A stretch of DNA of 48,864 nt, taken from NCBI GenBank assembly GCA_035303865.1, contig DATGRC010000302.1, forward strand, positions 1 through 48,864, written 5' to 3'. Positions within the stretch are counted from its first letter, which is position 1; each line of letters opens with the position of its first letter. Under the pieces are notes generated by a model. The model was not told where the DNA came from and made no database searches. It saw only the letters and a list, made by a program, of their open reading frames with translations. Positions 3,000 to 46,333 of this stretch are shown here, piece after piece. This DNA is from Acidimicrobiales bacterium (GTDB lineage Bacteria; Actinomycetota; Acidimicrobiia; Acidimicrobiales; VFJN01). A program made the position numbers and the translations under genes.

Positions 3000-3643
3000 C
3001 CCGACGTGCACTGCTCGGCGTGGACCTGACCCCCACCTTCTGCGAGGGAGGTGGCCTGCCCGTCGAGGGCGGGAACGACACCGCGGCGCGGGTGGCCGCC
3101 TTCCTCGACGCGCACGGCCGCGACTACGACCTCCTCGTCTTCAGCGAGGACTGGCACATCGACCCCGGAGACCACTGGGCGCCCGAGGGCGGCGAGCCCG
3201 ACTTCCGCACCAGCTGGCCCAAGCACGGGCCGGCCGGCACCGACGAGGCCCGGGTGCACCCGGTGATCCGGGAGGTGCTCGATCGCCTCGCCGCCGACGG
3301 CGTGCGGGTGCACCTCGTGCGCAAGGGCATGTACTCGGCCGCCTACTCGGCCTTCGAGGGCGTGGTCGTCGAGAACGACCCGGCCGAGCTCGAGCCGGTC
3401 GGGCCGCCGCTGGCCGACTGGCTGCGCCGGGAGGGCGTCACCCACCTCGACGTGATGGGGATCGCCACCGACCACTGCGTGCGGGCCAGCTCGCTCGACG
3501 CGATCCGCGAGGGCTTCGAGGTCCGCCTGCTCGGCGATCTCGTGGCCGGCGTGGCGCCGGACACGAGCGAGGCCGCCCTCGAGGAGATGGCCGCCGCCGG
3601 CGTGGAGCTGTCGACCAGCGCCGCCGTCGGCGCCCGGACCTGA
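2996..3643 (+). CDS. pncA: Nicotinamidase/pyrazinamidase (isochorismatase family)
   Basis: This is the last 215 codons of track ORF 1028..3643, starting at ATG 2996. Sequence reads LLGVDLTPTFCEGGGLPV...SEDWHI...HLDVMGIATDHCVRASSLDA (catalytic Cys context). It is translationally coupled to pncB. Confidence 0.85.
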   Translation: MTRRALLGVDLTPTFCEGGGLPVEGGNDTAARVAAFLDAHGRDYDLLVFSEDWHIDPGDHWAPEGGEPDFRTSWPKHGPAGTDEARVHPVIREVLDRLAADGVRVHLVRKGMYSAAYSAFEGVVVENDPAELEPVGPPLADWLRREGVTHLDVMGIATDHCVRASSLDAIREGFEVRLLGDLVAGVAPDTSEAALEEMAAAGVELSTSAAVGART

Positions 3644-3651
3644 GGCCCGGC

Positions 3652-4422
3652 GTGGCCCGCCGACGCCGGTACCGCCCGGCCAACGAGGAGGAGGCCGCCT
3701 ACCTCGCCGTCTTCGACCCCCGGTCGTTCCCACCGGTGGCCGTCACCGTCGACGTCGTCTCGCTGACGATCCGGGCCGGGCGGCTGTCGGTGCTGCTCGT
3801 GCAGCGGGGCGCCTACCCGTACAAGGGGGCGTGGGCGCTGCCCGGCGGCTTCGTCGAGCCCGACGAGGACACCGACGCCGCTGCCGCCCGGGAGCTGGCC
3901 GAGGAGACGGGGGTGGCGTCGGTCCCCGGTCACCTCGAGCAGCTCCGCACCTACAGCGACCCCGACCGCGACCCCCGGATGCGGGTGATCTCGGTGGCGT
4001 ACGTGGGCTTCGGCCCGGAGGCCGCGGTGCCCGAGGCGGGCAGCGACGCCACCGCCGCTCGCTGGTGGGCGATCGACGACCTGGAGGGGCCCGACGCCCC
4101 CGCCCTGGCGTTCGACCACGCTCGGATCATCGCCGACGGGGTGGAGCGGGCCCGGGCCAAGATCGAGTACACGTCGCTGGCCGCCAGCTTCGTGGAGGAG
4201 CCGTTCACGCTGGCCGAGCTGCGCCGGGTGTACGAGGCGGTGTGGGGCGTGGAGCTGCACGTGGGCAACTTCCGCCGCAAGGTGCTGTCCACGCCGGGGT
4301 TCGTTACCGTGGCCGACGAGGACGGCACGGCGGGCACGTCGCGCCGCACCGGCGGCCGGCCGGCCACGCTCTACCGCCGCGGCGGCGCCACGGTCCTGCA
4401 CCCCGCCATGCTCCGCCCCTGA
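3652..4422 (+). CDS. nrtR: NrtR-type Nudix-related transcriptional regulator of NAD metabolism (Nudix domain plus C-terminal winged-helix domain)
   Basis: 256 aa. It has an intact Nudix box, GFVEPDEDTDAAAARELAEETGV (G-x5-E-x7-REUxEExGU). The C-terminal part reads FTLAELRRVYEAVWG...NFRRKV, typical of the NrtR DNA-binding domain. It sits directly after pncB-pncA. Confidence 0.75.
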   Translation: MARRRRYRPANEEEAAYLAVFDPRSFPPVAVTVDVVSLTIRAGRLSVLLVQRGAYPYKGAWALPGGFVEPDEDTDAAAARELAEETGVASVPGHLEQLRTYSDPDRDPRMRVISVAYVGFGPEAAVPEAGSDATAARWWAIDDLEGPDAPALAFDHARIIADGVERARAKIEYTSLAASFVEEPFTLAELRRVYEAVWGVELHVGNFRRKVLSTPGFVTVADEDGTAGTSRRTGGRPATLYRRGGATVLHPAMLRP

Positions 4423-11844: not shown

Positions 11845-12855
11845 TCAGCCGCCGATCTGGCTCATCGACCGGCGGGGCCGCACGAAGTGCACCTGGTTGA
11901 TGGCGTGCCCGGCCCACTTGGCGCCGACGCAGGCCTCGATGGCCGCCGACAGGTCGTCATCGGTGCCGCCGCGGCGCAGCACGGCCCGCAGGTCGTGGTC
12001 CTCGAGGGAGAAGAGGCAGCTGCGGAGCTGACCGTCGGCGGTGAGGCGGAGCCGGTCGCACTGCTCGCAGAACGGCCGGGTGACGCTCGGGATGACCCCC
12101 ACCTCGCCGGTGCCGTCGAGGTAGCGGAACCGCTCGGCCGGCTCGTTGCCCCGGGCCAGCGGCTCCAGCGGGAAGGCGGCGGCGATCTGCTCGACGATCT
12201 CGGCCTGGGTGACGACCCGGTCGCCCCGCCAGGCGTCGCCGCCGTCGAGGGGCATCCACTCGATGAACCGCACGGTGACGCCCCGCTGGCGGCCCCAGGC
12301 GGCGAGGTCGACGATCTCGTCGTCGTTGACGCCGCGGACCACGACCACGTTCACCTTCACCGGGGTGAGCCCGGCGGCGACGGCGGCGTCCACGCCGGCG
12401 AGGACCGTCGCCAGCTCGTCGCGGCGGGTCAGCTCGGCGAAGCGCTCGGGCCGCAGCGAGTCGAGGGACACGTTGACCCGGCGCAGCCCGGCGGCGGCGA
12501 GCGGCTCGGCCTGGGTCACGAGGGTGGCGCCGTTGGTGGTGAGCGCGAGGTCGACGGGCAGCGCCGCGAGCTTGGCGACGAGGACCGGCAGGTGGGCCCG
12601 CACCGTGGGCTCGCCGCCGGTGAGGCGGATCGAGCGGATGCCGTGGCGCTCGACGAGGAGCCGGGCGACGCGCTCGAGCTCCTCGAAGGTGAGGACCTCC
12701 TCCCGGGGCAGCCAGGTGAGGCCCTCGGCGGGCATGCAGTAGGTGCAGCGGAAGTTGCACCGGTCGGTGACCGAGATCCGCAGGTCCCGGTGGACCCGTC
12801 CGAAGGCGTCGACGAGCGGCCGCTCGACGTGGTCGTCCTGGGACCCCCCGTGCAT
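11845..12855 (-). CDS. moaA: GTP 3',8-cyclase MoaA (radical SAM)
   Basis: This is the C-terminal 336 codons of track ORF 11845..14133, starting at ATG 12855. The radical-SAM cluster is LRISVTDRCNFRCTYCMP. The C-terminal auxiliary cluster is CEQCDRLRLTADGQLRSCLF. Confidence 0.9.
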   Translation of the reverse strand: MHGGSQDDHVERPLVDAFGRVHRDLRISVTDRCNFRCTYCMPAEGLTWLPREEVLTFEELERVARLLVERHGIRSIRLTGGEPTVRAHLPVLVAKLAALPVDLALTTNGATLVTQAEPLAAAGLRRVNVSLDSLRPERFAELTRRDELATVLAGVDAAVAAGLTPVKVNVVVVRGVNDDEIVDLAAWGRQRGVTVRFIEWMPLDGGDAWRGDRVVTQAEIVEQIAAAFPLEPLARGNEPAERFRYLDGTGEVGVIPSVTRPFCEQCDRLRLTADGQLRSCLFSLEDHDLRAVLRRGGTDDDLSAAIEACVGAKWAGHAINQVHFVRPRRSMSQIGG

Positions 12856-16231: not shown

Positions 16232-16900
16232 GTGCTGCGCCCGACGCCTGCTCGACCCCTCCCCCGCCGCCGCGGCGGCCTCCTCCCCGCGCTCCGGCGC
16301 CGGCCCCGGCTGTGGTGGGCGCTCGTCGTCACGCTGGCCCTCGCCGTGGGGCTGACGGTGTCGTCGGCGGTCGAGCGCGCCGACGCCGCCCGCCGGGCCT
16401 GGGGCGAGCCCGTGGCCGTGGTCGTGGCCACCGCGGACATCGGCCCGGGCGATGCGATCACCGACGCCGTGGTCGCCCTGGAGGAGCGTCCGGGGGCGGT
16501 CGTGCCGGCGTCCGCGCTCACGGAGGTCCCGGTCGCCCGGTCCGCGGCCACCTCGATCGCGGCCGGGGAGGTGGTGGTGGCCGAGCGCCTGGCCGACGCC
16601 GGTCTGCGGGGCCCCGCCGCGATGCTGCCACCGGGCACCCGGGCGGTGGCCGTCCCGGCCGAGCGGGGCCTCACGCCGCCGCTGGCCGCCGGCGATCGGG
16701 TCGACGTGGTCGTGGCCCTGGGCGGCGACGGCGAGGACCGGGGCGGGGCACCGCCGGGGTTCACGCTGGTGGACGCCGCGCTGGTCGTCGACGTGTCGGA
16801 GGACGCGGTCACCGTGGCCGTGCCCCGGGCCGACACGGCGCGCGTGGCGGTGGCGCTGGGATCGGGCGTGGTGACCCTGGCCCTGGTGGGGGCCCGCTGA
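16232..16900 (+). CDS. SAF-domain membrane-anchored protein (CpaB/RcpC-like)
   Basis: 222 aa. It has an N-terminal TM segment (LWWALVVTLALAVGLTV), then a SAF-like segment (IGPGDAITDAVVALEERP...). It sits beside the zinc-ribbon gene, as in other actinobacteria. Confidence 0.6.
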   Translation: MLRPTPARPLPRRRGGLLPALRRRPRLWWALVVTLALAVGLTVSSAVERADAARRAWGEPVAVVVATADIGPGDAITDAVVALEERPGAVVPASALTEVPVARSAATSIAAGEVVVAERLADAGLRGPAAMLPPGTRAVAVPAERGLTPPLAAGDRVDVVVALGGDGEDRGGAPPGFTLVDAALVVDVSEDAVTVAVPRADTARVAVALGSGVVTLALVGAR

Positions 16901-16919
16901 GCTGGCCCGGACGCGCCGG

Positions 16920-17735
16920 TCAGAGCAGGTAGAGCCCGAGCACGACGACCCCGACGAGCACCCGGTACACCACGAAGGGGGTGAACGTCCGGGTGCGGAT
17001 GAGGCGCAGCGTGCCCCACACGGCCAGCCAGCCGGTGACGCCGGAGGCGACGATGCCCCAGGCGAACGGGGCGACGAACCCGTCGGGGATGCCGCCCTCG
17101 CTCGCCACGTCGAGCGCCTTGTAGACGAGGGCGCCGGCGGTGATCGGCAGGCTCATCAGGAACGCGAAGCGGGCGGCCCCGTCGCGCCCGAGCCCGACGA
17201 GGCGCCCGGCCGTCATCGTCACCCCGGAGCGGGACACGCCGGGCTGGAGGGCGACGGCCTGCCCCACGCCCATGATGAGCGCGTCGCGCAGGCGGATCTC
17301 CTCGACCACCCGGGTGCCGGGGGCCCGGTCGGCCCAGGCCAGGACGAGCCCGAACACGATGAGCATCGTGGCGATCAGCCAGATGTAGCCGGTCTTGTCC
17401 TCGATCACGTCGGCGAACAGGGCGCCGGTGATCGCGGCGGGCACGGCGGAGGCCACCAGGAACCAGGCGATCCGCCCGTCGAGCGTGCCCAGCGCCCCCC
17501 GCCGGAGCCCGGCCCGGGCGTAGCGGACGACGTCGGCCCGGAAGTAGGCGAGCGCGCCGATCAGGGTGCCGAGGTGGAGGGCGACGTCGAAGGTCTTCTG
17601 CAGGTGCTCCTGCCCGGCGAAGTCGTCCCAGCCGAACAGCCACGGGACGAGGCGGAGGTGCCCGGAGGACGAGATGGGCAGGAACTCGGACAGCCCCTGG
17701 GTGATGCCCAGGACGATGGCGTGGAGGATCGGCAT
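16920..17735 (-). CDS. uppP: Undecaprenyl-diphosphate phosphatase (BacA/UppP)
   Basis: 271 aa. Sequence reads ILHAIVLGITQGLSEFLPISSSGHL...QAVALQPGVSRSGVTMTAG, canonical UppP motifs. Confidence 0.9.
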   Translation of the reverse strand: MPILHAIVLGITQGLSEFLPISSSGHLRLVPWLFGWDDFAGQEHLQKTFDVALHLGTLIGALAYFRADVVRYARAGLRRGALGTLDGRIAWFLVASAVPAAITGALFADVIEDKTGYIWLIATMLIVFGLVLAWADRAPGTRVVEEIRLRDALIMGVGQAVALQPGVSRSGVTMTAGRLVGLGRDGAARFAFLMSLPITAGALVYKALDVASEGGIPDGFVAPFAWGIVASGVTGWLAVWGTLRLIRTRTFTPFVVYRVLVGVVVLGLYLL

Positions 17736-17754
17736 GCGGGCGGGTGGGGGCCGG

Positions 17755-19113
17755 TCAGGTGCCGGAGAGGGTCACGTCGGGGATGACGAGGGTGACGCCG
17801 CCGGTGCCGTCGGGCAGCCACTCGAGGTCGGCGCCCACGGCGGCGATGTCGAGCAGCAGCCGCTGCAGCGTGGAGGCCACGGTGGCCTCGCGGATCGGCT
17901 CGGCCAGCGCTCCGTCGCGCACCATGAGGCCCTCCACCCCCACCGAGAAGTCGCCCGACACCGGGTTCACGCCCGAGTGCAGGCCCGCCATCGACGTGAC
18001 GAGGAGGCCCCGGTCGACGGTGGCGAGCAGCTCCTCGTGGCTGCCCTGCCCGGGGGCGACGGCCAGCGCGGTGGCCGCCACCCCAGGGGTGGAGGACACG
18101 CCCCGGGCGGCGGACCCGGTGGAGGCGGTGCCGGACCGGCGACCGGTGTAGGTGTTCTGCAGGAACCCCTGCAGGACGCCGTCGCGCACGAGCTCGTTGC
18201 GGCGGCGGGCCAGGCCCTCGCCGTCGTAGGTGTCGGCGCCGAGGCTGCGGGGGTCGGTGGGGTCGTCCACGAAGGTGAGCAGCGGCGACGCGATCGCCTC
18301 CCCCACCCGGTCGCGGAAGGGGGATCGGCCCTTGAGGACGGCCTCGCCGTTCAGCATCCCGCCGACGAGCCCGAGCACGGTGGCGGTCATCCGCGGCTCG
18401 AGCACGAGCGTGACCCGCTGGGTGGCCGGCTTGGCGGCGCCGAGCAGGCGGGTGGCCCGCAGCACCGCGTCGTCGGCCGCCTCGTCGACGGACAGGTCCT
18501 CGAGCTCGCGCCCCACCGACAGGCCGCCGGCGATCTGGGTCTCCCCGTCCTGGGTGGCGAGGGCCTGGACCATGAGGTAGCTGGTGCCGGCCCGGTCCCA
18601 CACCCGGATGCCGGTGCTGGTGGCCACGGCGGCCTCGCCGAGGCCGTCGCTGTACATGGCGACGCGGACGCCCTGGACGCGCGGGTCCCGCCCGGTGGTG
18701 GCTCGCTCGAGGTCGAGGGCGAGGGCCACCTTGTCGGCGGTGGGCACCTCGGGCAGGCCCTTGGGCCACAGGTCGAGCTCGGCGGGGGCCACGCCGTCGG
18801 GCTCGGCCAGGCCGTTGAACTCGTCGGGCTCGGCGTAGCGGGCGTTGTCCCGAGCCTCCTCGAGCGCCTCCTGCACGGTGGCCTCGTCGAGCGTCCCCGC
18901 GTAGGCGAAGCCCTCCCGGTGGTCGACGACCACCCGGACCCCCACCCCGGAGGTGGAGGCCTGGGTGAGCGACTCGACCTCGCCGCCGTAGGCCCGGACC
19001 GACGTGCTCGTGCTGCGGGCCACGAACGCCTCGACCTGCTCCCCGGGGCGGGCCTGGTCGGCCACCCGGGTGGCGAGGGCGAGGAGGTCGGGCTCGGTGG
19101 GCGCGCTCGCCAT
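17755..19113 (-). CDS. pmbA: PmbA/TldE-family metalloprotease partner subunit
   Basis: Taken from ATG 19113 (MASAPTEPDLLAL...) within track ORF 17755..19764. Sequence reads ...GVGVRVV.....GFAY...DGEG..RRRN.LV.DGVL.GFL......R....STG.A.R...PGV..TAL...G...SGDFS.G..G. The start overlaps the tldD stop by 1 nt (TGATG). Confidence 0.85.
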   Translation of the reverse strand: MASAPTEPDLLALATRVADQARPGEQVEAFVARSTSTSVRAYGGEVESLTQASTSGVGVRVVVDHREGFAYAGTLDEATVQEALEEARDNARYAEPDEFNGLAEPDGVAPAELDLWPKGLPEVPTADKVALALDLERATTGRDPRVQGVRVAMYSDGLGEAAVATSTGIRVWDRAGTSYLMVQALATQDGETQIAGGLSVGRELEDLSVDEAADDAVLRATRLLGAAKPATQRVTLVLEPRMTATVLGLVGGMLNGEAVLKGRSPFRDRVGEAIASPLLTFVDDPTDPRSLGADTYDGEGLARRRNELVRDGVLQGFLQNTYTGRRSGTASTGSAARGVSSTPGVAATALAVAPGQGSHEELLATVDRGLLVTSMAGLHSGVNPVSGDFSVGVEGLMVRDGALAEPIREATVASTLQRLLLDIAAVGADLEWLPDGTGGVTLVIPDVTLSGT

Positions 19114-32767: not shown

Positions 32768-32773
32768 TAGCGT
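32768..32773 (+). promoter_or_regulatory. -10 hexamer TAGCGT 7 nt upstream of the GTG at 32781 (leaderless-type)
   Basis: The geometry is TANNNT-N7-GTG. The alternative in-frame GTG at 32772 lies inside the hexamer. Confidence 0.3.
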
Positions 32774-32780
32774 GCTGGGG

Positions 32781-33716
32781 GTGACCGACCGCTCCGCCGC
32801 CCGCTTCGTCGTCCACCAGCCGGTCGCCGATGCGCTCGCCGAGGGCCGCCCGGTGGTGGCCCTCGAGTCGACGATCATCAGCCACGGCCTGCCCCGGCCC
32901 GACAACCTCGACGTGGCCCGCCAGATCGAGCAGGCCGTGCTCGACAACGGCGCGCTGCCGGCCACGATCGCCGTGGTCGACGGGGCGGTGCGCATCGGCC
33001 TCGACGAGGACGCCCTCGTCGAGATCGCCACGTCCGACGACGTGGTGAAGGCCAGCGTGCGCGACCTCGCCATCGTGGCGGCGCGTGGCGGCCACGCCGC
33101 CACCACCGTGGCCGCCACCGCCCACCTCGCCTCGGAGGCCGGCATCGCCGTGTTCGCCACCGGCGGCCTGGGCGGCGTCCACCGCGGTGCGGCGCACACC
33201 TTCGACGAGTCGGCCGACCTCACCAGCCTCGGCCGCCTGCCGATCACCGTCGTGTCGGCCGGGGTGAAGTCGATCCTCGACGTCGGCGCCACCCTCGAGC
33301 GGCTCGAGTCCCTCGGCGTGGCCGTGGTCGGCTACGGCACCGACCGCTTCCCGGGCTTCTACCGCCGCGACAGCGGCTTCCCCGTGGACTGGCGGGTCGA
33401 CCGCCCCGAGGAGGTGGCGGCGATCATGGAGGCCCGGGCCCGGCTCGGCACCGACGGGGCGGCGCTGGTCGTCGCCAACCCCGTCCCCGAGGAGGACCAG
33501 GTCGACGCCGAGCTGCACGACCGGGTCCTCGCCGAGGGCCTCGCGGCCGCGGAGGCGGCCGGCATCCGCGGCAAGGACGTGACCCCGTTCCTCCTCGAGC
33601 GGTTCCACCGGGAAACCGAGGGCGAGAGCCTCCGCTCGAACGTGGCGATCATCCTCGCCAACGCCGCGCTCGCCGCCCGCATCGCCGCGGCGGCCGCTCC
33701 CGCGGGCCGCCCGTGA
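32781..33716 (+). CDS. psuG: Pseudouridine-5'-phosphate glycosidase
   Basis: Sequence reads VALESTIISHGLPRPDNL...ATIAVVDG..RIGL......VKAS.RDL......G...ATTVAAT...A..AGI.VFATGGLGGVHRGA...FDESADL..L.R.P..VV.AG.KSILD, a canonical PsuG/IndA family protein. Confidence 0.85.
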   Translation: MTDRSAARFVVHQPVADALAEGRPVVALESTIISHGLPRPDNLDVARQIEQAVLDNGALPATIAVVDGAVRIGLDEDALVEIATSDDVVKASVRDLAIVAARGGHAATTVAATAHLASEAGIAVFATGGLGGVHRGAAHTFDESADLTSLGRLPITVVSAGVKSILDVGATLERLESLGVAVVGYGTDRFPGFYRRDSGFPVDWRVDRPEEVAAIMEARARLGTDGAALVVANPVPEEDQVDAELHDRVLAEGLAAAEAAGIRGKDVTPFLLERFHRETEGESLRSNVAIILANAALAARIAAAAAPAGRP

Positions 33717-34585
33717 GCGAGCCGGCGGGCCCGGAGGTCCTCGTCGTCGGCGACCTCATGGTCGACGTCGTCGTCGTGCCGTCCGGCCCGCTGAACCACG
33801 CCAGCGACGTGGCCTCGACGATCGAGATGCGCGGCGGCGGGTCGGCGGCCAACACCGCCTGCTGGCTCGGCGCGGCCGGTCGGGCCGTGCGGCTGGTGGC
33901 GATGGTGGGCGACGACGCGGCCGCCCCCGGGGCCCTGGCCCTGCTCGAGTCGTGCGGCGTGCGCTTCGCCGGCGCCGCGGTGGCGGGCAGCGCCACCGGC
34001 ACCTGCGTGGTGCTCGTGGACCCAGACGGTGAGCGCACGATGCTCCCCGACCGGGCCGCCAACGACCGGCTCGACCCCGACCTCGTGGTCGCGGCGGTCG
34101 AGGACCGACCGGCGTGGCTGCACCTGTCCGGCTACACGCTCCTCGACGAGGGGTCTCGGCCCGCCGCCCGGGCCGGGCTGGATCGGGCCCGGGCCCTCGG
34201 CGTGCCCGTGTCGGTCGACGCGTCGAGCGCCGGTCCGCTGCGGCAGCTGGGCGGCGAGCGGTTCCTCGAGTGGGTGGACGGCAGCCGCGTGCTGTTCGCG
34301 AACGACGACGAGGTGGCCGCGCTCGGCGGGCTCGACGCCTGCCGCCGCCACGTCGAGGTGGTGGTGGCCAAGCACGGTCCGCGTGGGGTGTCGTGGGTGT
34401 CGGCCGACGCCACCGTGTCGGTGCCCGCCGCCCCCACGACGGTGGTGGACACCGTCGGCGCCGGCGACGCGCTCGACGCCGGCGTCATCGACGCGCTGGT
34501 CGGCGGCGCGGGCCCCGAGGAGGCCCTGCGAGCCGGTGCCGCGCTGGCCGCCCGGGCCGTGGCCCGCGTCGGCGCCCGCCCCTGA
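33713..34585 (+). CDS. PfkB-family carbohydrate kinase, probable pseudouridine kinase
   Basis: 290 aa. Sequence reads VLVVGDLMVDVVV...GGGSAANTA.WL...DTVGAGDALDAG (PfkB signature 2). It has a GTGA start/stop overlap with psuG. Confidence 0.75.
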   Translation: MSEPAGPEVLVVGDLMVDVVVVPSGPLNHASDVASTIEMRGGGSAANTACWLGAAGRAVRLVAMVGDDAAAPGALALLESCGVRFAGAAVAGSATGTCVVLVDPDGERTMLPDRAANDRLDPDLVVAAVEDRPAWLHLSGYTLLDEGSRPAARAGLDRARALGVPVSVDASSAGPLRQLGGERFLEWVDGSRVLFANDDEVAALGGLDACRRHVEVVVAKHGPRGVSWVSADATVSVPAAPTTVVDTVGAGDALDAGVIDALVGGAGPEEALRAGAALAARAVARVGARP

Positions 34586-38687: not shown

Positions 38688-39665
38688 ATGATCCTCGCCA
38701 TGGCGATGCCCCTGCCCCGCAAGCCCGTGCGCGTCGAGCGCCTCCTCGACGACCCGGAGGTCGTGGAGCGCCTGCTGGTGCGCCACGGCCCCTACTGGCC
38801 CGTGCAGCGCTACCTGGCCAACCGGGCCGAGTACGCCGCGCTGTCCGGGGCCCGGGCCGAGGCGCCGGTGGTCGGGCCGGTGTTCCGCGGAGACTGGGCC
38901 TTCGGCGGCGACGTCCGCGACGGCGTGGACGCGATCCTCCACCACCCCACCCTCGCCGCGGCGGCCCGGCAGGTGTTCGACGCCGAGATCGTGCGGCCCC
39001 ACACCGTCTACGTGAACCTCACCCACCAGCTGCCGTTCCCGCAGGGCCGGGGCCACACCGACATCCCGGCCTTCCGGGGCTTCGACCGCACGACGGTGCC
39101 GGTGGCGTTCCTCACGATCATGGGCCAGTCGGGGCTCTTCGAGGACGTCCGCGTGAAGGTGGCCACCGCGGTGGCGTGGTTCTACGAGGGCGACGACGGG
39201 GGCTTCGAGTACTGGCCCGAGGGCGCCGACCAGCCGTCGGTGGTCCACGAGGGCGCGATCTCGAACACGGCGGTCGTGGCCGACAACGACTTCATGTGGC
39301 ACCGGGTGCGCCCCACCGGCCGCCCCGAGGACGGGATGCCGTCGATCACGCTCGACGCCCAGCTCGAGCACCGCGGCGACGACCGCTGGGCGATCGTGGA
39401 CGGCGGGAGGACGGTGGCCGAGACGGACCGGTCGCGGGTGCGGGTGAGCCTGTCGTGGAAGGCGACGCTCTTCGAGGACGAGGCCGACCGGCGCCGCCAC
39501 GACGAGCACGAGGACGACATCGACCTGGCCGAGGTGCTGCGGCGCTTCCGGGTGGACCTGGCCGAGCGCGGCGTCAGCGTGGACGTGCCCGCGGACCCGC
39601 TCCGCGACGAGGCCTTCGTCCAGCTGCTCGCCGACACGTACGTCCGCTTCCCGGTGGAGGCCTGA
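38688..39665 (+). CDS. Hypothetical protein; possible Fe(II)/2-oxoglutarate-dioxygenase-like fold (HxD...H)
   Basis: 325 aa. It has GRGHTDIPAF (HxD) and, about 75 residues later, FMWHRVRP (distal His plus Arg). I recognise no specific family. Codon usage is typical of neighbouring genes. Confidence 0.5.
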   Translation: MILAMAMPLPRKPVRVERLLDDPEVVERLLVRHGPYWPVQRYLANRAEYAALSGARAEAPVVGPVFRGDWAFGGDVRDGVDAILHHPTLAAAARQVFDAEIVRPHTVYVNLTHQLPFPQGRGHTDIPAFRGFDRTTVPVAFLTIMGQSGLFEDVRVKVATAVAWFYEGDDGGFEYWPEGADQPSVVHEGAISNTAVVADNDFMWHRVRPTGRPEDGMPSITLDAQLEHRGDDRWAIVDGGRTVAETDRSRVRVSLSWKATLFEDEADRRRHDEHEDDIDLAEVLRRFRVDLAERGVSVDVPADPLRDEAFVQLLADTYVRFPVEA

Positions 39666-40637: not shown

Positions 40638-41024
40638 TCAGCGGGCGTGGAGCACGGCGACCGCGACGACGTGGTCGTCCTCGTAGGAGACCGACACGAG
40701 CGGCGCCGGTGCGCCAAGCTCGTCGAGCAGCGCGCCGAAGCGCCCCGAGAGGGTGACGTACGGGGCGCCGGTGCGCTCCTCGTGGACCTCGATGTCGCGC
40801 AGCAGGTCGCCGTCCTGGAAGCTGGTCCCCAGGCTCTTGAAGACCGCCTCCTTGATGGCGAAGCGGGTCGCGAAGGCGACGGCGGGATCGCCCGCTCGCC
40901 GGGCGGCGGCCGTCTCCTGGTCGGTGAAGGTGGACGCCATATACCCCGCGGCGGCGGAGCCGTCGAGGATCGAGCGGATCCGGTCGATCCGCAGCAGGTC
41001 CACGCCGACGCCGAGGACGCTCAC
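40638..41024 (-). CDS. acpS: Holo-[acyl-carrier-protein] synthase (4'-phosphopantetheinyl transferase, AcpS type)
   Basis: Sequence reads [18 protein letters not shown]...FT..E........[15 protein letters not shown].....DIEV......GAP.V.L.G. The GTG at 41024 overlaps the pta-like stop (GTGA). Confidence 0.8.
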
Positions 41025-42022
41025 CCCTGCCCCTCCTGCGCGCAGCACGCGGCCATGACGGCCACCGCGACGATGTCGTCCACGGTCGAGCCGCGGGACA
41101 CGTCGGAGACCGGGTGGGCGAAGCCCTGCAGGAACGGGCCGTAGGCGCCCGCGCCGGCGAGGCGCTGGGTGAGCTTGTAGCCGATGTTCCCGGCGTCGAG
41201 GTCGGGGAAGGTCAGCACGTTGGCCCGACCGGCGACCGGACTGCCGCCGGGCACCTTCTTGGCCGCCACGGCCGGCACGAGCGCGGCGTCGGCCTGCAGC
41301 TCGCCGTCGACGGCCAGCGACGGAGCCCGGGAGCGGATCCGCTCGAGGGCGTCGCGGACCTTGTCCACGCTCGGACCCTCGGCGCTGCCCTTCGTGGAGT
41401 ACGACAGCAGCGCCACCCGAGGCTCCCAGCCGAGGAGCCGGGTGACCGTGTCAGCGGTGGCGATCGCGATGTCGGCGAGCTCGTCGGCGGTGGGGTCCGG
41501 GACCACGCCGCCGTCGGCGTAGGCCAGGAGCGTGCCCTCCGGGCCGTCGTACCCGGGGATCTCCATGAGGAACATGCTCGACGGGGTGGTGATCCCCGGC
41601 GCCAGGCCGATGAGCAGCTGCGCTGTGGCCACGACCTCGCCGGTGGGGCACCGGAAGCCGGCGACGAGCGCGTCCGCTCGGCCGGTGCGCACGAGCATCG
41701 CCGCGAACGCGAGCGGCTGGCCCAGGAGCCGACGAGCCGCTCGCTCCGGGAACGACGGGTTCGCCTGGAGGTACGCGGCGACGAGATCGTCCAGCACCGG
41801 GCCCCGTGGTTCGACGACCTCGATCCCGTCGAGCCCGACGTCGAGCGCCGACGCGGTCGCCGAGACCGCGTCGGCGGCGGCGACGAGCACCGGGTGGACG
41901 GCGCCGAGGTCGGCCACCCGCCGGGCGGCGGTCACGACCTCCGCGGCATCGCCGTCCGCGAACGCGACCCGCTTCGGATCGGCGCGGGCCCGTGCCGCCA
42001 GTCGCTCGATGAGCTCGGTCAT
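41021..42022 (-). CDS. pta: Phosphate acetyl/butyryl-transferase family protein (PTA_PTB; Pta-like)
   Basis: 333 aa. Sequence reads ...SSMFLMEI...[22 protein letters not shown]...[72 protein letters not shown], which follows short-form Pta closely. Confidence 0.8.
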
Positions 42023-42062
42023 GGTTCCGCCTCGTTCGGTGCTCGGTGCGGGCCGGGCCGGC

Positions 42063-42311
42063 TCAGGCCGGCGCGCCGGCCCTCAGGCCCTCGATGCGGG
42101 CCACGAGGTCCCCGACCGTCTTCGACCGCAGCACGTCGAAGACCGGGACCTCCACGCCCAGCTCCTCGCCCAGGAGGACGCTCAGCTCGATGCGGTTGGC
42201 CGACTTGAGCCGCAGGTCCTCCGCGAGCCTCGACGCGTCGTCGATGTCAGCCGGGTCCCGCCCGGTCGCCTCGGCGACCAGGCGGACCACCGTCTCCCTC
42301 GTCTCGCTCAC
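42063..42311 (-). CDS. Acyl/peptidyl carrier protein (PP-binding-like), atypical K-S attachment motif
   Basis: 82 aa, taken from GTG 42311, 4 nt after the DUF35 stop. A four-helix carrier pattern is present. The candidate phosphopantetheine Ser is in [17 protein letters not shown] (usual form DLGxDSLxxVEL). Confidence 0.6.
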
Positions 42312-42315
42312 GGCG

Positions 42316-42717
42316 TCACACCACCTTGAACGCGAGGACGGGGAGCCCACCGACGTCGATGATGTCCGCTTCCACGGGGACGGGTCCCCGCTGGAAGAGC
42401 TCCTCCAGCGCCGTCGGTGTGGGTTCGACGTTCGTCACGATGCCCTGCACGTACACGCCCTCGTCCAGGCGGACGTGGCCGTAGCTGTACGGGGCGAGGT
42501 CGTTGAACGCCGGGTTCGGCGGCGGCGCGGCCCCGTGGGAGACGTACTCGAGCGTCCCCTTGCCGGAGAGCTCGACCCACTCCACCTCGAAGCTGCCGCA
42601 CTTCTCGCAGGCCGTCGTCGGGGGGAAGGTGACGGTGTCGCACGTCGGGCACTTCGTCGCCTGGATCGTCCCCTCGGCGAGGCCGTCGTAGTAGCGCTTG
42701 ATGACTGAAGTCGTCAT
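42316..42717 (-). CDS. DUF35 Zn-ribbon/OB-fold protein (thiolase partner subunit)
   Basis: 133 aa. It has a rubredoxin-like CPTCDTVTFPPTTACEKCGS followed by an OB-fold segment. The ATG lies 1 nt after the thiolase stop (TGAgATG). Confidence 0.8.
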   Translation of the reverse strand: MTTSVIKRYYDGLAEGTIQATKCPTCDTVTFPPTTACEKCGSFEVEWVELSGKGTLEYVSHGAAPPPNPAFNDLAPYSYGHVRLDEGVYVQGIVTNVEPTPTALEELFQRGPVPVEADIIDVGGLPVLAFKVV

Positions 42718-42718
42718 C

Positions 42719-43996
42719 TCACATCCCTCCCCGAAGGACGAGGACCGTGCTGATCATGGCGTAGCCGTGGGTGTGGACCACCGCGATCTGCGGCGGCGTC
42801 GGGATCTGCTTCTTCCCGGCCCGGCCGCGGATCTGATCCATCGCCTCGAGCGTGTCTGCGCCGGCGCTGGCCGCCCACGCGTGGCCGAACGCATGCCGGC
42901 CGCCGTGGGTGCTCATCGGCCGGTCACCGTCGAAGCGGAGCCGACCTTCCGCGGCGTACATCAGGCCCTTGCCCTCGGGCAGGTAGCCGGACAGCTCGGC
43001 GTTGGTCAGACCCGAGATGTGCGAGCAGTCGTGCGTGTGCAGGTAGCCGATCTGCTCGGGCCGGATGTCGGCCATCTCGTAGGCCTCGCGGAACGCGATC
43101 ACGTCGGCGGGGAACGTCGTGGCGTCCTCCTGGTACCACGGCAGGTCACCGACCGAGATCCCCCACCCGAGCAGCTCGACGGGCAGGCCGTCGTAGGCCC
43201 GGGCCCCGTCCGCGTCGCTGAGCACCATGGCCGACGCCCCGTCGGCGGCGGTCACGAGGCTGCGGAGGCGGGTCGGGTACGCGATGTAGGGGTTGTGGGG
43301 CGAGGTCCAGAACTCGTAGAGGTCGGTGAAGCCGAGCCGCTTCGCCTCCTCCTCGAGCGTCTCCTGCAGGATGGCGTTCGGGGTGAGCGAGCCGTGGAGC
43401 CGCTTCGTGCGGCACAGCTCCATCATCCCGCGGTCGAACTCCTCCTGCGTGAGCCCGTGCTTGCGCCGGTAGGCCAGCGCCATCAGCCCGTTGTAGACGG
43501 GGAAGATGTCGTAGCCCTGCGGGACGCCGTACGCCTGGTTCACGCCGTAGTCCGTCCACATCCACATGTTCTCGGAGGTGATCGGCTCACGGCCGTAGGG
43601 GAACGGCCCCTTGGGGTTGTTCTGCGTGGCCTCGACGCCAACGACGAGCACCTTGCGGTACACGCCGGCCGCGATCTGGCTGGCGGCCATCGTGGCCGCG
43701 GCGTTGGTCGTCGAGCACGCCGCGGCGACCTGGACACCGGCCTTGCGCTCCATGCCGATCCACTTCGTGAACTGGCTGTAGAGGCTGCCCATGTTCAGGC
43801 TCTGCGGCATGTGGTTGCCGATGATGAAGGCGTCGATCTCGCGCGGGTCGGTCTTGGCGTCCTCGAGCGCGCGGCGAGCGGCCTGTGCGGCCAGCTCGTA
43901 GATCGACAGCCCCTGGATCTCCGGTGTCTCCAGGAGGTTGCCGAACTTCGTGCAACCTGCTCCCAGGAGGTACACCGGGCGAGTCAGCTTGCCCAT
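42719..43996 (-). CDS. Thiolase-like condensing enzyme, SCP2/SCP-x thiolase subgroup
   Basis: 425 aa, taken from ATG 43996 (GAGGAGGAG RBS); the rest of track ORF 42719..45502 is shadow frame. The nucleophile Cys is in VAAACSTTNAA. It has an HDCS motif (HDCF-type of SCP2 thiolases) and THGGRHAFGHAWAASAG. Confidence 0.85.
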   Translation of the reverse strand: MGKLTRPVYLLGAGCTKFGNLLETPEIQGLSIYELAAQAARRALEDAKTDPREIDAFIIGNHMPQSLNMGSLYSQFTKWIGMERKAGVQVAAACSTTNAAATMAASQIAAGVYRKVLVVGVEATQNNPKGPFPYGREPITSENMWMWTDYGVNQAYGVPQGYDIFPVYNGLMALAYRRKHGLTQEEFDRGMMELCRTKRLHGSLTPNAILQETLEEEAKRLGFTDLYEFWTSPHNPYIAYPTRLRSLVTAADGASAMVLSDADGARAYDGLPVELLGWGISVGDLPWYQEDATTFPADVIAFREAYEMADIRPEQIGYLHTHDCSHISGLTNAELSGYLPEGKGLMYAAEGRLRFDGDRPMSTHGGRHAFGHAWAASAGADTLEAMDQIRGRAGKKQIPTPPQIAVVHTHGYAMISTVLVLRGGM

Positions 43997-44014
43997 GACT
44001 CCTCCTCGCTGTCG

Positions 44015-44026
44015 CCTCCATGGAGG
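44015..44026. promoter_or_regulatory. 12-bp perfect palindrome CCTCCATGGAGG in the thiolase 5' leader (anti-SD/SD-like)
   Basis: Read directly. It lies 19 nt upstream of the thiolase ATG and 9 nt from its GAGGAGGAG RBS on the minus strand. Confidence 0.3.
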
Positions 44027-44221
44027 ATGCGCCCGGAGGGCCCGCCGCAGTAGAGGAGGAGGTCCCGACCTGGACCAGCGGAGGTCCCTTCCCTCCACCC
44101 GCTCGGTTGGCGGGCCGGGGGAACGGCCGAAGGTCCCGACAGAAGGGTCCGGTCGCGCCTGGGCGGCCTCGGCCCGAGCCGGTACGGGTGAAGGTGCGCT
44201 CGATCGCGCGAGGAGGTCGCC

Positions 44222-45514
44222 ATGTCGCCACGTCGTCGGCGGTCCTCGGCTCATCGCCGTCACCGCTTCCCCCGCCCAGCCCTCGGGGCGGCCTGCGCGG
44301 CCCTCGCAGCGATGGTCGCCTGGCCGCTGCTCGTCAGCCCGGCGCTGGTCAAGTACCCCACCGACCTCGACGTCACCCAGTCGCTGGCCGGCACCTTCAC
44401 CGTGCTCGTCGACCCGGTGACCGCGGCGCCGCTCGAGGAGCCGCGGGAGCTCGACCTCGCCGTCGAGCGCCACCTCGAAGCCCTCCCCGACGAGAGCGGC
44501 GCCGACACGGTGGTGGTCCGCGAGACCGTCCACCAGCGCGCCGGCGACCTCATCGACCTCACCCAGGTGAACCAGTACGTGATGGACCGCTCGACGCTGC
44601 GGAACGTGGCCGACGAGCGGGCCTTCGCGTTCGAGCCCGGCACGCCCGCCGATCGGGCCGGCGCCTACCGGCTCCACCTGCCGTTCGGGACGAGCCGCCA
44701 CCGGACCTACGAGATCTGGGGCAACGAGATCGGCACCACCTACGAGATCGCCCCCGACCCCGAGCAGCCCACCGGCGAGCTCGAGGGCCTCGAGGTGTAC
44801 TGGTTCGTGGCCGAGGAGCACGAGGTGCCGCTCACCGACGCCTACCTGGCGGAGCTGCGGGAGGCCGTCCCGCTGCCGGAGACGATCACGCTCGCCCAGG
44901 TCCGACCTCACCTGGCTGCGGCCGGCGTGGAGCTCGACGCGCTGCTGGCCGACCTGGCCGCCGTGCTCACCCCGGCGGACACCGACGTGCTGCTGGCGAT
45001 GGCCGGGGAGCCGATCGAGCTCGAGTACGTCACCACCTTCCAGGGGCGCCTCGCCGTCGAACCGGTGACCGGCACCGAGGTGGACCTGGCCGTGGCCGAG
45101 ACGGTCGCCGCCCGACCCCACCTGCCCAACCTGGCGGAGTTCCTGATGGTGCTCGGCCACTACCCGGACGAGCCCGCCGCGGTGGAGGCGGTCGAGGTGC
45201 TGTCGGGCCTCGTCGACGGCCCGCCCATCCCGCTCTTCGAGTACGCCTACGAGCAGACGCCGGCCTCGCTGGCCCACATCGCCGGGGAGGCGGCGTCGAT
45301 GCGGCGCCTCGTCCTCGCCGTCACCGTGTGGGCGCCGGCCGCGTTCGGGGTGCTGGCCATCGTCGCCCTGATGGGCGGCCAGATCGTGCGGGTGCGACGC
45401 AAGCCGCGGCCCCTCGACCTGTCGACGCTGTGGGACACCCCGGCCCCGCCCGACCCCCACGACCTCGCCGAGCGACCGACCGCCGCTCCGGACGTCGAGC
45501 ACCGCCGGCGCTGA
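44222..45514 (+). CDS. DUF3068-family (PorA-like) actinobacterial envelope protein with N- and C-terminal TM anchors
   Basis: 430 aa. It has an N-terminal TM segment (ACAALAAMVAWPLLVSPALVKYP), a large extracytoplasmic region, a C-terminal TM segment (LAVTVWAPAAFGVLAIVALMGG) and a basic tail. GAGGAGG RBS. Confidence 0.55.
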   Translation: MSPRRRRSSAHRRHRFPRPALGAACAALAAMVAWPLLVSPALVKYPTDLDVTQSLAGTFTVLVDPVTAAPLEEPRELDLAVERHLEALPDESGADTVVVRETVHQRAGDLIDLTQVNQYVMDRSTLRNVADERAFAFEPGTPADRAGAYRLHLPFGTSRHRTYEIWGNEIGTTYEIAPDPEQPTGELEGLEVYWFVAEEHEVPLTDAYLAELREAVPLPETITLAQVRPHLAAAGVELDALLADLAAVLTPADTDVLLAMAGEPIELEYVTTFQGRLAVEPVTGTEVDLAVAETVAARPHLPNLAEFLMVLGHYPDEPAAVEAVEVLSGLVDGPPIPLFEYAYEQTPASLAHIAGEAASMRRLVLAVTVWAPAAFGVLAIVALMGGQIVRVRRKPRPLDLSTLWDTPAPPDPHDLAERPTAAPDVEHRRR

Positions 45515-45601: not shown

Positions 45602-46333
45602 TCAGCGGATCGTCGTGTCGGCCTCGGCCTCGACCCGGTCGTCGTGCACGAGGTCGCCGTCCGCGTCGGCGGGGGTCAGCACGGCGCTGAAGGTGATGTC
45701 GGAGCCGGGCTGGTGCTTGAAGTTGTCGCCGTAGGCGAAGGACTCACCCGGGGCCCAGGGGAACGGGGCCTCGGTGTTGCCGGTCGCGATCGCCGACGCC
45801 GGGATGCCCATCTCCTCGTAGAGGGCGCGGTCGCTCGAGCCGTCCATGCCCTGGGCCCACTGCCAGTCGGCGTAGCGGGCGGTGACGTTCACGAGGTTAA
45901 ACGGCAGCTGGATCGTGTCGCCGCTCGTGTTGGTGGCGACGTAGAGCACGTAGACGAGCTCGTCGCCTGCCTTGAGGATCGGCTCGTTGGTGGACGGGTC
46001 GATGAACATGCCGTCCTTCGGCGCCGCCGCGGTGCCGACCTGGTACACGTCGACCGTGAAGCCCTCGCCCTCGATCGTGGTGAGCAGGTCCCCCGTCACC
46101 TCGAAGGGGTTGGCCCACGCCGGGGTGGCGCCGTCCGCGGGGCCGGTGTCGTCGTCATCATCGTCGACGTCGTCGTCAGCATCGGCCTCGGTGGTGTCGG
46201 AGCCGGGGTCCTCGACGTCCGCCGCGGTGGTCGTCGTGGTGTCGTCGCTGGCGTCGTCGTCGTCGCCGCAGGCGGCCAGCCCGAAGACGAGCGCGGCGAT
46301 CGACAGCGTGCCGAGGGTGCGAGTCAAGCGCAT
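45602..46333 (-). CDS. Lipoprotein with poly-acidic/Thr linker and C-terminal beta-rich domain
   Basis: 243 aa. The lipobox is LVFGLAAC|GDDDDASDD, followed by TTTTAADVEDPGSDTTEADADDDVDDDDDD, then a globular domain (…VYVLYVATNTSGDTIQLPFN…). Confidence 0.65.
   Translation of the reverse strand: MRLTRTLGTLSIAALVFGLAACGDDDDASDDTTTTTAADVEDPGSDTTEADADDDVDDDDDDTGPADGATPAWANPFEVTGDLLTTIEGEGFTVDVYQVGTAAAPKDGMFIDPSTNEPILKAGDELVYVLYVATNTSGDTIQLPFNLVNVTARYADWQWAQGMDGSSDRALYEEMGIPASAIATGNTEAPFPWAPGESFAYGDNFKHQPGSDITFSAVLTPADADGDLVHDDRVEAEADTTIR

Follow-up and report, generated by a model that had tools for sequence, protein, structure and literature searches.

The window analyzed here, a 48,864-nucleotide (48.9-kb) stretch of an Acidimicrobiales bacterium with 74.5% G+C, carries at positions 40638-43996 a compact set of five minus-strand genes that encode a thiolase, a DUF35 protein, a small acyl carrier protein (ACP), a Pta-family phosphotransacylase and an AcpS-type phosphopantetheinyl transferase (PPTase). 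An earlier note on this DNA had described the five genes as tightly packed, had assigned each product to its family and had raised the possibility of a carrier-protein-linked thiolase pathway. The structure, distribution and possible function of this gene set, called the cassette below, were examined. Its features, in the order of transcription and followed by the region in front of them, are as follows.

42719-43996, minus strand: ACAT-type (archaeal/SCP2-like) thiolase, 425 aa, ATG start; Thiolase_N and Thiolase_C_1 domains.
42316-42717, minus strand: DUF35 partner with Zn ribbon and OB fold, 133 aa; zf-ChsH2 and OB_ChsH2_C domains.
42063-42311, minus strand: predicted dedicated ACP, 82 aa, GTG start; PP-binding domain.
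41021-42022, minus strand: Pta-family phosphotransacylase, 333 aa, ATG start; PTA_PTB domain.
40638-41024, minus strand: AcpS-type (group I) 4'-phosphopantetheinyl transferase, 128 aa, GTG start; ACPS domain.
43997-44311, no strand: intergenic region before the operon, shared with a divergent PorA-like gene; presumed promoter/leader, with no open reading frame (ORF) showing a coding signal.

By inspection of the sequence, the five genes lie head to tail. The TGA of the thiolase gene and the ATG of the DUF35 gene are 1 nt apart (tgaGatg, 42721-42715), the DUF35 TGA is followed by CGCC and then by the carrier GTG (42311), 40 nt, including a GAGG Shine-Dalgarno sequence, separate the carrier gene from the Pta ATG (42022), and the Pta TGA overlaps the AcpS GTG (GTGA, 41024-41021). 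Purine-rich Shine-Dalgarno sequences were present upstream of all five starts, that of the thiolase being AGGAGGAG 5' of its ATG. Every junction given in the earlier note was seen in the sequence, and an independent codon-position G+C model picked the same five starts and stops. The family assignments of that note also held, with Pfam matches for all five products: thiolase (Thiolase_N PF00108, 1.5e-10; Thiolase_C_1 PF22691, 3.3e-25), DUF35 (zf-ChsH2 PF12172, 1e-11; OB_ChsH2_C PF01796, 1e-9), carrier (PP-binding PF00550, 4e-10, 40.1 bits versus a cut-off of 20.8, with no other Pfam match), Pta (PTA_PTB PF01515, 7e-94, 315 bits) and AcpS (ACPS PF01648, 4e-15, 56.4 bits). The motifs it had read, AAACSTT, HDCS and GG..GH in the thiolase and L-K-S in the carrier, were all present (Cys94, His322/Cys324, His372 and Ser37). 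None of the five products reached an NCBIfam equivalog cut-off; the Pta missed narrowly, and the carrier and AcpS clearly.

Evidence for cotranscription came from an anaerobic-digester RNA library, in which a single 2667-nt contig (41248-43914, depth 31.6) covered Pta, ACP, DUF35 and thiolase. In the same library the AcpS end had a depth of 6 and the flanking genes 0 to 8, the contig standing at about 5 times the flanking depth; contig depth is a crude measure, DNA carry-over is possible, and compost libraries showed even coverage. The cassette sequence was common in compost, manure and sludge metagenomes and occurred also in metatranscriptomes. In the presumed promoter/leader region (43997-44311), no sigma-70 consensus, no terminator and no Rfam match (no riboswitch or leader RNA) was found.

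The distribution of the cassette was surveyed by tblastn and by HMM searches based on the cassette proteins in 80 species-representative genomes with an orthologous thiolase; the closest match of the window among the species representatives searched was 68%. The carrier and Pta-like genes lay directly downstream of the thiolase-DUF35 pair in 27 of the 80 genomes, and AcpS was found in 20 of the 24 cassette loci with enough sequence. An acetate kinase gene was located between or beside the cassette genes in 11 of the 27 cassettes, and a short acetate kinase remnant (HMM E 3e-8) 3' of AcpS at L020:13416-13619 suggests a decaying in-cassette ackA. The hosts belong to at least six phyla (Firmicutes, Chloroflexi, Deltaproteobacteria, Alphaproteobacteria, Spirochaetes and Actinomycetes); those in the Firmicutes are Eubacteriaceae, Geosporobacter, Sinanaerobacter, Anaerovoracaceae, Oscillospiraceae and Syntrophomonadaceae, and the others are Anaerolineales and Caldilineaceae (Chloroflexi), Desulfatiglandales, myxobacteria, Devosiaceae, Spirochaetales and Actinomycetes. 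At three loci (L012, L018 and L031) the gene order was altered, with Pta before the carrier, and at two of these (L012 and L031) AcpS was on the opposite strand; the genes were still together. The gene set therefore recurs well beyond this DNA, in otherwise unrelated neighborhoods; the earlier note had made its proposal depend on synteny in related genomes.

A divergent AraC-family regulator (AraC_binding_2 and HTH_18) was encoded at 16 of the 24 cassette loci. All-against-all clustering of the flanking ORFs revealed no other recurrent neighbor in the cassette loci and none in loci that hold only the thiolase-DUF35 pair. With the AraC regulator as the sole conserved neighbor, the cassette is self-contained. 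A metagenomic close relative (carrier 96% identical) had the same local synteny as the window, and in a 73%-identical metagenomic relative the cassette was in a different neighborhood. On a 681-kb metagenomic contig (L086), the cassette lies amid a phage-integrase fragment, an IS481-type transposase and a GmrSD restriction gene (positions 2941-3405, 12173-12481 and 16753-18615), an island-like setting. Within the window, the cassette is the stretch of lowest G+C for its size (0.714 versus a mean of 0.746; thiolase 0.688, DUF35 0.679), which is consistent with horizontal origin or strong protein-level constraint. The recurrence, the changed contexts, the island setting and the low G+C indicate a self-contained unit that moves horizontally.

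These results bear on another explanation, namely, that a housekeeping AcpS and Pta happen to stand beside a thiolase-DUF35 pair and a stray ACP. In its favor, the 48.9-kb window has no other acpS, no acpP/fab cluster and no ackA. Against it, at least six phyla share the set, with reshuffled order, island contexts and an internal acetate kinase; the genes are translationally coupled and share a single RNA contig, and an AcpS::Pta fusion protein, described below, exists. The carrier, Pta and AcpS score under the acpP, pta and acpS equivalog cut-offs of NCBIfam, all cassette Ptas lack an arginine of the M. thermophila enzyme (MtPta Arg133, below), and the ACP/AcpS/Pta/acetate kinase set also joins a different enzyme. 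Incidental adjacency is thus highly improbable and, on synteny, close to refuted.

Approximately 50 orthologous thiolase-DUF35 pairs (56-68% identical) had no ACP, Pta or AcpS nearby and no conserved neighbors. These pair-only loci (L033-L085, L001, L006, L008 and L009) were mostly from aerobic Alpha- and Betaproteobacteria, with some from Syntrophomonadaceae. UPGMA clustering by identity placed the proteobacterial pair-only sequences in one derived cluster, surrounded by cassette-bearing sequences. A check for plasmid carriage gave a single match, a pair-only locus on a Paracoccus chromid. In a Syntrophomonas metagenome-assembled genome (L089:276-9188), a pair-only thiolase-DUF35 has a Pho-type two-component system, pstSCAB, phoU and a low-molecular-weight phosphatase immediately upstream, which may be coincidence.

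Next to be considered is the small ORF, which the earlier note had called PP-binding-like, with an unusual Lys-Ser rather than Asp-Ser attachment motif. Besides its PP-binding match, the attachment Ser37 is preceded by Lys36 (L-K-S-A-N-R-I-E-L); in 29 of 29 cassette carriers the Ser is invariant and K or R stands directly before it, and K36, S37 and E42 are invariant in a 42-sequence carrier alignment. Both the domain assignment and the motif were thereby upheld. The consensus of the 29 cassette carriers is AEDLG-x-K-S-x-x-R-I-E-L-AALLE ... NFEIRKPKT. A single-sequence search reached close relatives only, and the family was defined by a profile search, which yielded 537 clusters; the best 120 were all standalone proteins of 76 to 82 aa. 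An apparent ACP-Pta fusion at L025 was rejected as an ORF-extension artefact: a TGA ends the ACP, and 0 of the 120 best ACP-family matches were fused. In an AlphaFold model (pLDDT 93), the carrier forms a four-helix bundle (helices 3-16, 37-51, 57-62 and 66-79) with Ser37 at the N-terminus of helix II and a TM score of 0.75-0.85 to AcpM/AcpP. The PP-binding match, together with an ACP fold that places Ser37 at helix II, argues that the carrier is a real ACP.

The features of a housekeeping ACP, namely, a D-S-L motif, a strongly acidic surface and an equivalog score, were not found in the carrier, which has K-S-A instead and scores under all NCBIfam ACP model cut-offs. Its net charge is -5 (family range, -5 to +2), compared with about -15 for E. 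coli AcpP. The recognition helix has basic residues where acidic ones are expected. By sequence, then, the window carrier is a member of a distinct standalone ACP family. Since it is near neutral and has Lys before Ser, it is probably invisible to the enzymes of fatty acid synthesis, and cross-talk with that pathway appears unlikely. The basic recognition helix would also give a reason for a private PPTase; the evidence that the predicted carrier may be phosphopantetheinylated is the co-inherited AcpS gene.

The AcpS product has the size of a single-domain enzyme (about 120-130 aa). It scored above the cut-off of TIGR00556 (63.4 versus 45.35), below that of the housekeeping acpS equivalog TIGR00516 (51.8 versus 59.8) and far below all PRK equivalogs, and its best PDB matches were the PPT domain of fungal fatty acid synthase (FAS) and E. 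coli AcpS. Charge complementarity to the carrier through loss of the basic helix in AcpS was considered and rejected as a general feature, being true of the window, L003 and L031, since an R-R pair like that of E. coli AcpS persists in the majority of cassette AcpS proteins.

The Pta-like enzyme scored slightly under the NCBIfam pta cut-offs (NF007233, 301.1 versus 310; TIGR00651, 273.4 versus 311.2) and closely resembled solved CoA-dependent enzymes (E 2e-73 to E. coli EutD, 1VMI, and 2e-67 to P. gingivalis Pta). It is not PlsX (FA_synthesis, 16 bits versus 29.1; TIGR00182, 16 versus 243.4). The catalytic residues Asp307, Ser309, Arg310 and Asp316 are kept and align with those of 1QZT and 6IOW; they are conserved in 25 to 27 of the 28 cassette sequences. 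In a joint alignment with five solved Ptas (1VMI, 6IOW, 8FIR, 1R5J and 1QZT), the position of MtPta (M. thermophila Pta) Arg133 was Arg in 5 of 5 solved enzymes versus M, L, I, A, V or T in 28 of 28 cassette Ptas, within a segment that usually reads P-T-E-E-V-I/L-x-x-S-E. The window Pta has Ala132 at this position, which corresponds to Arg135 of P. gingivalis Pta. In the P. gingivalis enzyme, contacts to acetyl-CoA run from Arg135 to the beta-phosphate and from Arg89 and Lys92 to the 3'-phosphate; in MtPta, mutations of Arg87 and Arg133 act mainly on Km, raising it (PMC6461089). An exhaustive HMMER search of 1.84 billion representatives returned 7546 Pta relatives. Arg or Lys was present at the Arg133 position in 81 of the best 150 of these 7546, and the ten relatives closest to the window all lacked Arg133. 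One subgroup has Glu at this position, in the motif R-V-I-E-A (P0262, P0272, P0273, P0278, P0279, P0318, P0325, P0328, P0344 and P0370); the one genomic context retrieved for it (L093, P0262) was on a contig too short to interpret.

The equivalent of MtPta Arg87 is Asn in the window Pta. Because the alignment at Arg87 is ambiguous and the 2x2 table for the two positions is mixed (60/36/33/21), joint loss of Arg87 and Arg133 was rejected as a clean signature, and Arg133 alone was used. Its loss is a family signature that is consistent with a changed thiol substrate. As a speculation, the positive charge lost with Arg133 may have moved to Lys36 of the carrier.

Among the closest Pta relatives was P0259, a 492-aa fusion of an AcpS domain to a Pta without Arg133. 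This protein led to a second type of cassette, present at three loci (L090:1464-6338, which encodes P0259; L091:1012-7686; L092:3482-9686), with the order TetR regulator, ACP, CocE/NonD-type serine hydrolase, AcpS, Arg133-less Pta and acetate kinase. The ACP is of 80-81 aa with an A-K-S motif, the hydrolase is of approximately 580 aa (Peptidase_S15 and PepX_C; nucleophile elbow G-N-S-A-L), and the kinase is present in two of the three. At L090, the AcpS::Pta fusion is followed by a second AcpS-like ORF and acetate kinase remnants. The kinases encoded within cassettes match M. thermophila acetate kinase (E 3e-121) and keep its catalytic residues; their acetate pocket (V/A93, L/V/I122, F179, P/S232) is of acetate/propionate size, which suggests that the acyl group is C2, perhaps C3.

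The ACP, AcpS and Pta set, with or without acetate kinase, is thus found with a thiolase or with a hydrolase, i.e., as a module attached to two unrelated enzymes. No other observation argues more strongly for joint action of the Pta-like enzyme and the carrier. The module of ACP, AcpS, Arg-less Pta and acetate kinase looks portable, and a feature common to thiolase and serine hydrolase is a covalent acyl-enzyme intermediate. A more general function could be entertained, in which a portable acyl-capture module would take the acyl-enzyme intermediate of unrelated enzymes (the Cys thiolase or the CocE/NonD serine hydrolase) and pass the acyl group to phosphate. Where cleavage would otherwise be a hydrolysis that wastes the energy, or a thiolysis that needs CoA, ATP would then come from substrate-level phosphorylation that draws on a thioester bound to a protein and bypasses the CoA pool. 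We regard this generalization as doubtful.

The Pta similarities raise a different explanation, in which an ordinary CoA-dependent Pta works beside a CoA thiolase; the ACP would then carry the beta-ketoacyl substrate or serve the thiolase-DUF35 complex as a structural or regulatory subunit, and Pta, with acetate kinase, would turn acetyl-CoA into ATP. The conserved catalytic residues, the high similarity to solved CoA-dependent Ptas, the bit scores barely under the NCBIfam pta cut-offs and a basic residue at the Arg87 position in most cassettes all fit, and the pair-only thiolase orthologs presumably use CoA. Several observations are harder to accommodate. The cassette encodes no AMP-ligase or acyltransferase, leaving the Pta-like enzyme or the thiolase as the only means of loading the ACP; Arg133 is lost in 28 of 28 cassettes; AcpS is fused to Pta, not to thiolase, in P0259; and the ACP/AcpS/Pta/acetate kinase set persists where a hydrolase replaces the thiolase. 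On balance, this explanation is improbable.

The thiolase scored under every NCBIfam cut-off. Its nucleophile Cys94 (AACSTT), its HDxF-type motif H322-D323-C324-S325 (F replaced by S) and its GHx motif G371-H372 were identified by a PDB profile alignment, in which Cys94, HDC and GH align with AACAS, HDCF and GHA of the M. thermolithotrophicus acetoacetyl-CoA thiolase (6ESQ). These motifs are invariant across 16 thiolase orthologs, and orthologs are 56-88% identical across phyla. In a fold search, the best matches were 7YVY, 7PYT and 6ESQ (TM score 0.72-0.76, 20-25% identity); the nearest solved relatives (the archaeal thiolases 7YVY and 6ESQ, BbsB, SCP2 thiolases, DUF35-dependent aldolases and PhlC/MucB) were all 20-25% identical. 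In the aligned comparison, the Sal aldolase lacks the Cys, and P. furiosus and BbsB carry HDA. True ACATs are told apart from PhlC/MucB acyltransferases by the Cys, HDxF and GHx motifs; in one study the acyltransferases did not cleave acetoacetyl-CoA, a related HDxF-keeping ACAT did, and mutation of the HDxF His in that ACAT abolished cleavage (PMC12960953). Because the window enzyme keeps the HDxF motif as the cleaving ACAT does, it is most likely a true Claisen/thiolysis catalyst.

The DUF35 partner has four rubredoxin-like Zn-ribbon cysteines (C27, C30, C41 and C44) followed by an OB fold, and its gene was directly 3' of the thiolase gene in 86 of 86 loci examined. Cassette-type and pair-only proteins can be told apart: DUF35 positions 66-68 are P66-P67-N68 in the former versus A-C-H in the latter, and the thiolases differ at conserved positions beside the nucleophile (D/E91 and A/Q93) and at 347, 387 and 416. 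In a Devosiaceae DUF35 (L025:11274-11675), the Zn-ribbon cysteines are lost (KSEKNGAITFPPAAAGPGADGS), and the remaining cassette is intact.

From these data a working model was assembled for the five genes as one operon and one module, in which the thiolase would operate on a private carrier instead of free CoA. AcpS would place 4'-phosphopantetheine on Ser37 of the dedicated ACP. The Pta-like enzyme would interconvert acetyl-S-ACP plus phosphate and acetyl-phosphate plus HS-ACP. The ACAT-type thiolase, held by DUF35, would move acetyl between Cys94 and the ACP thiol during thiolysis or Claisen condensation of the type acetoacetyl to and from two acetyl groups. Acetate kinase, which in this genome would be encoded outside the window, would tie acetyl-phosphate to ATP. 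In the draining direction, a beta-dicarbonyl thioester or related compound would be cleaved, holo-ACP would intercept the acetyl-enzyme, and acetyl-phosphate would leave, giving ATP. AraC and TetR regulators are typical of substrate-induced catabolic operons. The catabolic direction was weighted higher because the module is self-contained, has no enzyme that would serve as an outlet for acetoacetyl-ACP and is under AraC or TetR control. This draining, carrier-based model is the one we put first, tentatively and at slightly less than an even chance.

The same enzymes could run in the opposite direction. Acetate would be activated at low cost, through acetate kinase and the Pta-like enzyme, to acetyl-S-ACP, and thiolase-DUF35 would condense acetyl groups without malonyl-CoA to acetoacetyl-ACP or -CoA, or C-acetylate an acceptor, in a small biosynthetic, storage or acetate-detoxifying route. 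The evidence that links ACP, Pta and thiolase applies equally here. The organism and its cassette abound in compost, manure, sludge and digester samples and are transcribed there; such habitats are usually acetate-rich. Acyl transfer from acetyl-ACP to a serine hydrolase/acyltransferase would be downhill and would fit the second cassette better. In archaea, DUF35 scaffolds pull unfavorable thiolase condensations (6ESQ complex; bioRxiv 10.1101/2024.07.05.601840). However, beside the cassette there is no conserved reductase, dehydratase or synthase, nor any other outlet that would draw off acetoacetyl-ACP; Claisen condensation of one acetyl thioester with another runs strongly uphill unless coupled; and every cell already has acetyl-CoA as an acetyl donor. 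A neutral K-S ACP is also unlikely to dock to FAS enzymes, and AraC/TetR control is more typical of catabolism. The biosynthetic direction is accordingly rather unlikely, though it is the strongest rival of the draining model.

Several points weigh against the draining, carrier-based model. Four of 24 complete cassette loci have no AcpS, and the window has neither an acetate kinase gene nor the AraC regulator. Pair-only orthologs exist, so the thiolase has no intrinsic need of ACP, Pta and AcpS. The catalytic site of Pta is, by sequence, indistinguishable from that of CoA-dependent enzymes, the equivalent of MtPta Arg87 is still basic in most cassette Ptas, and the rejected two-arginine signature counts here as well. 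Holo-ACP, too, contains the phosphate that Arg133 contacts, so that loss of this residue is a signature and not a proof. The ATP-yielding direction of the hydrolase-type cassette would be uphill for ordinary esters, as estimated from standard values. The model does not explain why a carrier should be preferred over CoA, and each of its chemical steps, its substrate and its direction are predictions; what the data establish are the gene structure, the domain identities, the synteny, the family signatures and cotranscription.

Thiolase-DUF35 and Pta-AckA are textbook CoA chemistry, and carrier proteins are linked with the assembly of fatty acids, polyketides and peptides. The archaeal acetoacetyl-CoA thiolase/HMG-CoA synthase/DUF35 complex (6ESQ/6ET9) belongs to the same deep thiolase clade, with Cys, HDC(F) and GH aligned, and in this complex and the archaeal DUF35-mediated fatty acid synthase assembly a Zn-ribbon/OB DUF35 is encoded beside the thiolase, as in the window. 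The archaeal DUF35 is a scaffold that couples the thiolase to its partner enzyme (bioRxiv 10.1101/2024.07.05.601840). The window thiolase is 23-25% identical to the archaeal enzyme, and the window has no HMG-CoA synthase, reductase or dehydratase; the archaeal systems use free CoA and no carrier protein, whereas the partners in the window are an ACP, a Pta-like enzyme and a PPTase. The PhlACB/MucABC C-acetyltransferases (5M3K, 9VBO) resemble the window system in a thiolase-fold subunit with DUF35 and an acetyl-Cys intermediate. They show that members of this clade can exchange acetyl groups with partners other than CoA in vitro. In assays, acetyl-CoA serves the C-acetyltransferases solely as donor and acetoacetyl-CoA is not cleaved, and an HMGS-like subunit is required (PMC12960953). 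In contrast, the window thiolase keeps HDCS and has no HMGS-like neighbor.

The Pta-AckA pathway (EC 2.3.1.8/2.7.2.1) has the same families and catalytic residues and the same expected intermediate, acetyl-phosphate, and the in-cassette kinases are canonical. It differs in that the thiol partner proposed for the window is protein-bound phosphopantetheine, that Arg133 is lost in all cassettes and that the cassette Pta is co-inherited with ACP and PPTase, once being fused to PPTase. PlsX has the type of reaction proposed here (acyl-S-ACP plus phosphate to and from acyl-phosphate plus ACP) and, by Pfam clan membership, belongs to the same structural superfamily as PTA_PTB; unlike the window Pta, it serves phospholipid synthesis, with long chains carried on the housekeeping ACP. 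Citrate lyase and malonate decarboxylase are catabolic C-C lyases with a private carrier, a private prosthetic-group transferase and an ATP-dependent step to acetyl-S-carrier. They have a different carrier family, 2'-(5''-phosphoribosyl)-3'-dephospho-CoA, CitX/CitG and a ligase instead of acetate kinase and Pta, and no thiolase. No CitD/MdcC-type carrier or CitX/CitG-type enzyme turned up in a full Pfam scan of the five proteins, which gave PP-binding and ACPS only for carrier and transferase. All parts of the cassette belong to known families, and the known kinds of system that it varies are Pta-AckA, DUF35 thiolase complexes and private-carrier lyases. In the full-text literature searched, no description of the thiolase-type or the hydrolase-type cassette was found, and a matching paper on a Pelobacter genome proved irrelevant; the earlier note had been unable to place the combination in a characterized pathway, and none containing it was found in that literature.

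If the proposals are true, a Pta-family enzyme acting on a protein-bound thiol would be a new enzyme activity, and an orthogonal, near-neutral ACP class with its own PPTase would likewise be new. The cassette would provide a possibly CoA-independent link from C-C or ester cleavage to ATP, or from acetate to C-C bond formation, and portable acyl capture would add a new mode of energy conservation. At 3.4-4.7 kb the cassette is short; it is apparently mobile and present in the cultivable Geosporobacter ferrireducens IRF9 and Sinanaerobacter chloroacetimidivorans BAD-6, so the hypothesis is directly testable. Complete genomes that carry it include CP017269.1 and OY782829.1. In pathway engineering, the cassette could also be a source of an orthogonal acetyl-carrier system.

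The remainder of the window has ordinary actinobacterial chromosomal content (Dxs, NifU, RtcB, PncB/NrtR, PhoD and a pseudouridine glycosidase/kinase pair). Upstream of the cassette is a divergent PorA-like protein (44312-45514; PF11271, 7e-24), and the AraC regulator that in most other genomes is encoded divergently at the position equivalent to 43997-44311 is absent. Adjoining the PorA-like protein is a 243-aa predicted lipoprotein-like protein (45602-46333, minus strand) that has no Pfam match and whose N-terminal region is very acidic and rich in Asp and Thr. The downstream neighbors (a GNAT protein, an FMN-reductase-like protein, an unknown protein, TetR and a metal hydrolase) are unrelated to the cassette. 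At 38688-39665 (plus strand), there is a 325-aa protein with a strong coding signal and no Pfam match, and the close relative L088 encodes its counterpart (326 aa) at the corresponding position. Two tidy salvage clusters lie at 1614-4422 and 32772-34585: one for NAD salvage, with PncB, an isochorismatase-type nicotinamidase and the regulator NrtR, and one for pseudouridine salvage, with pseudouridine-5'-phosphate glycosidase and a PfkB kinase.

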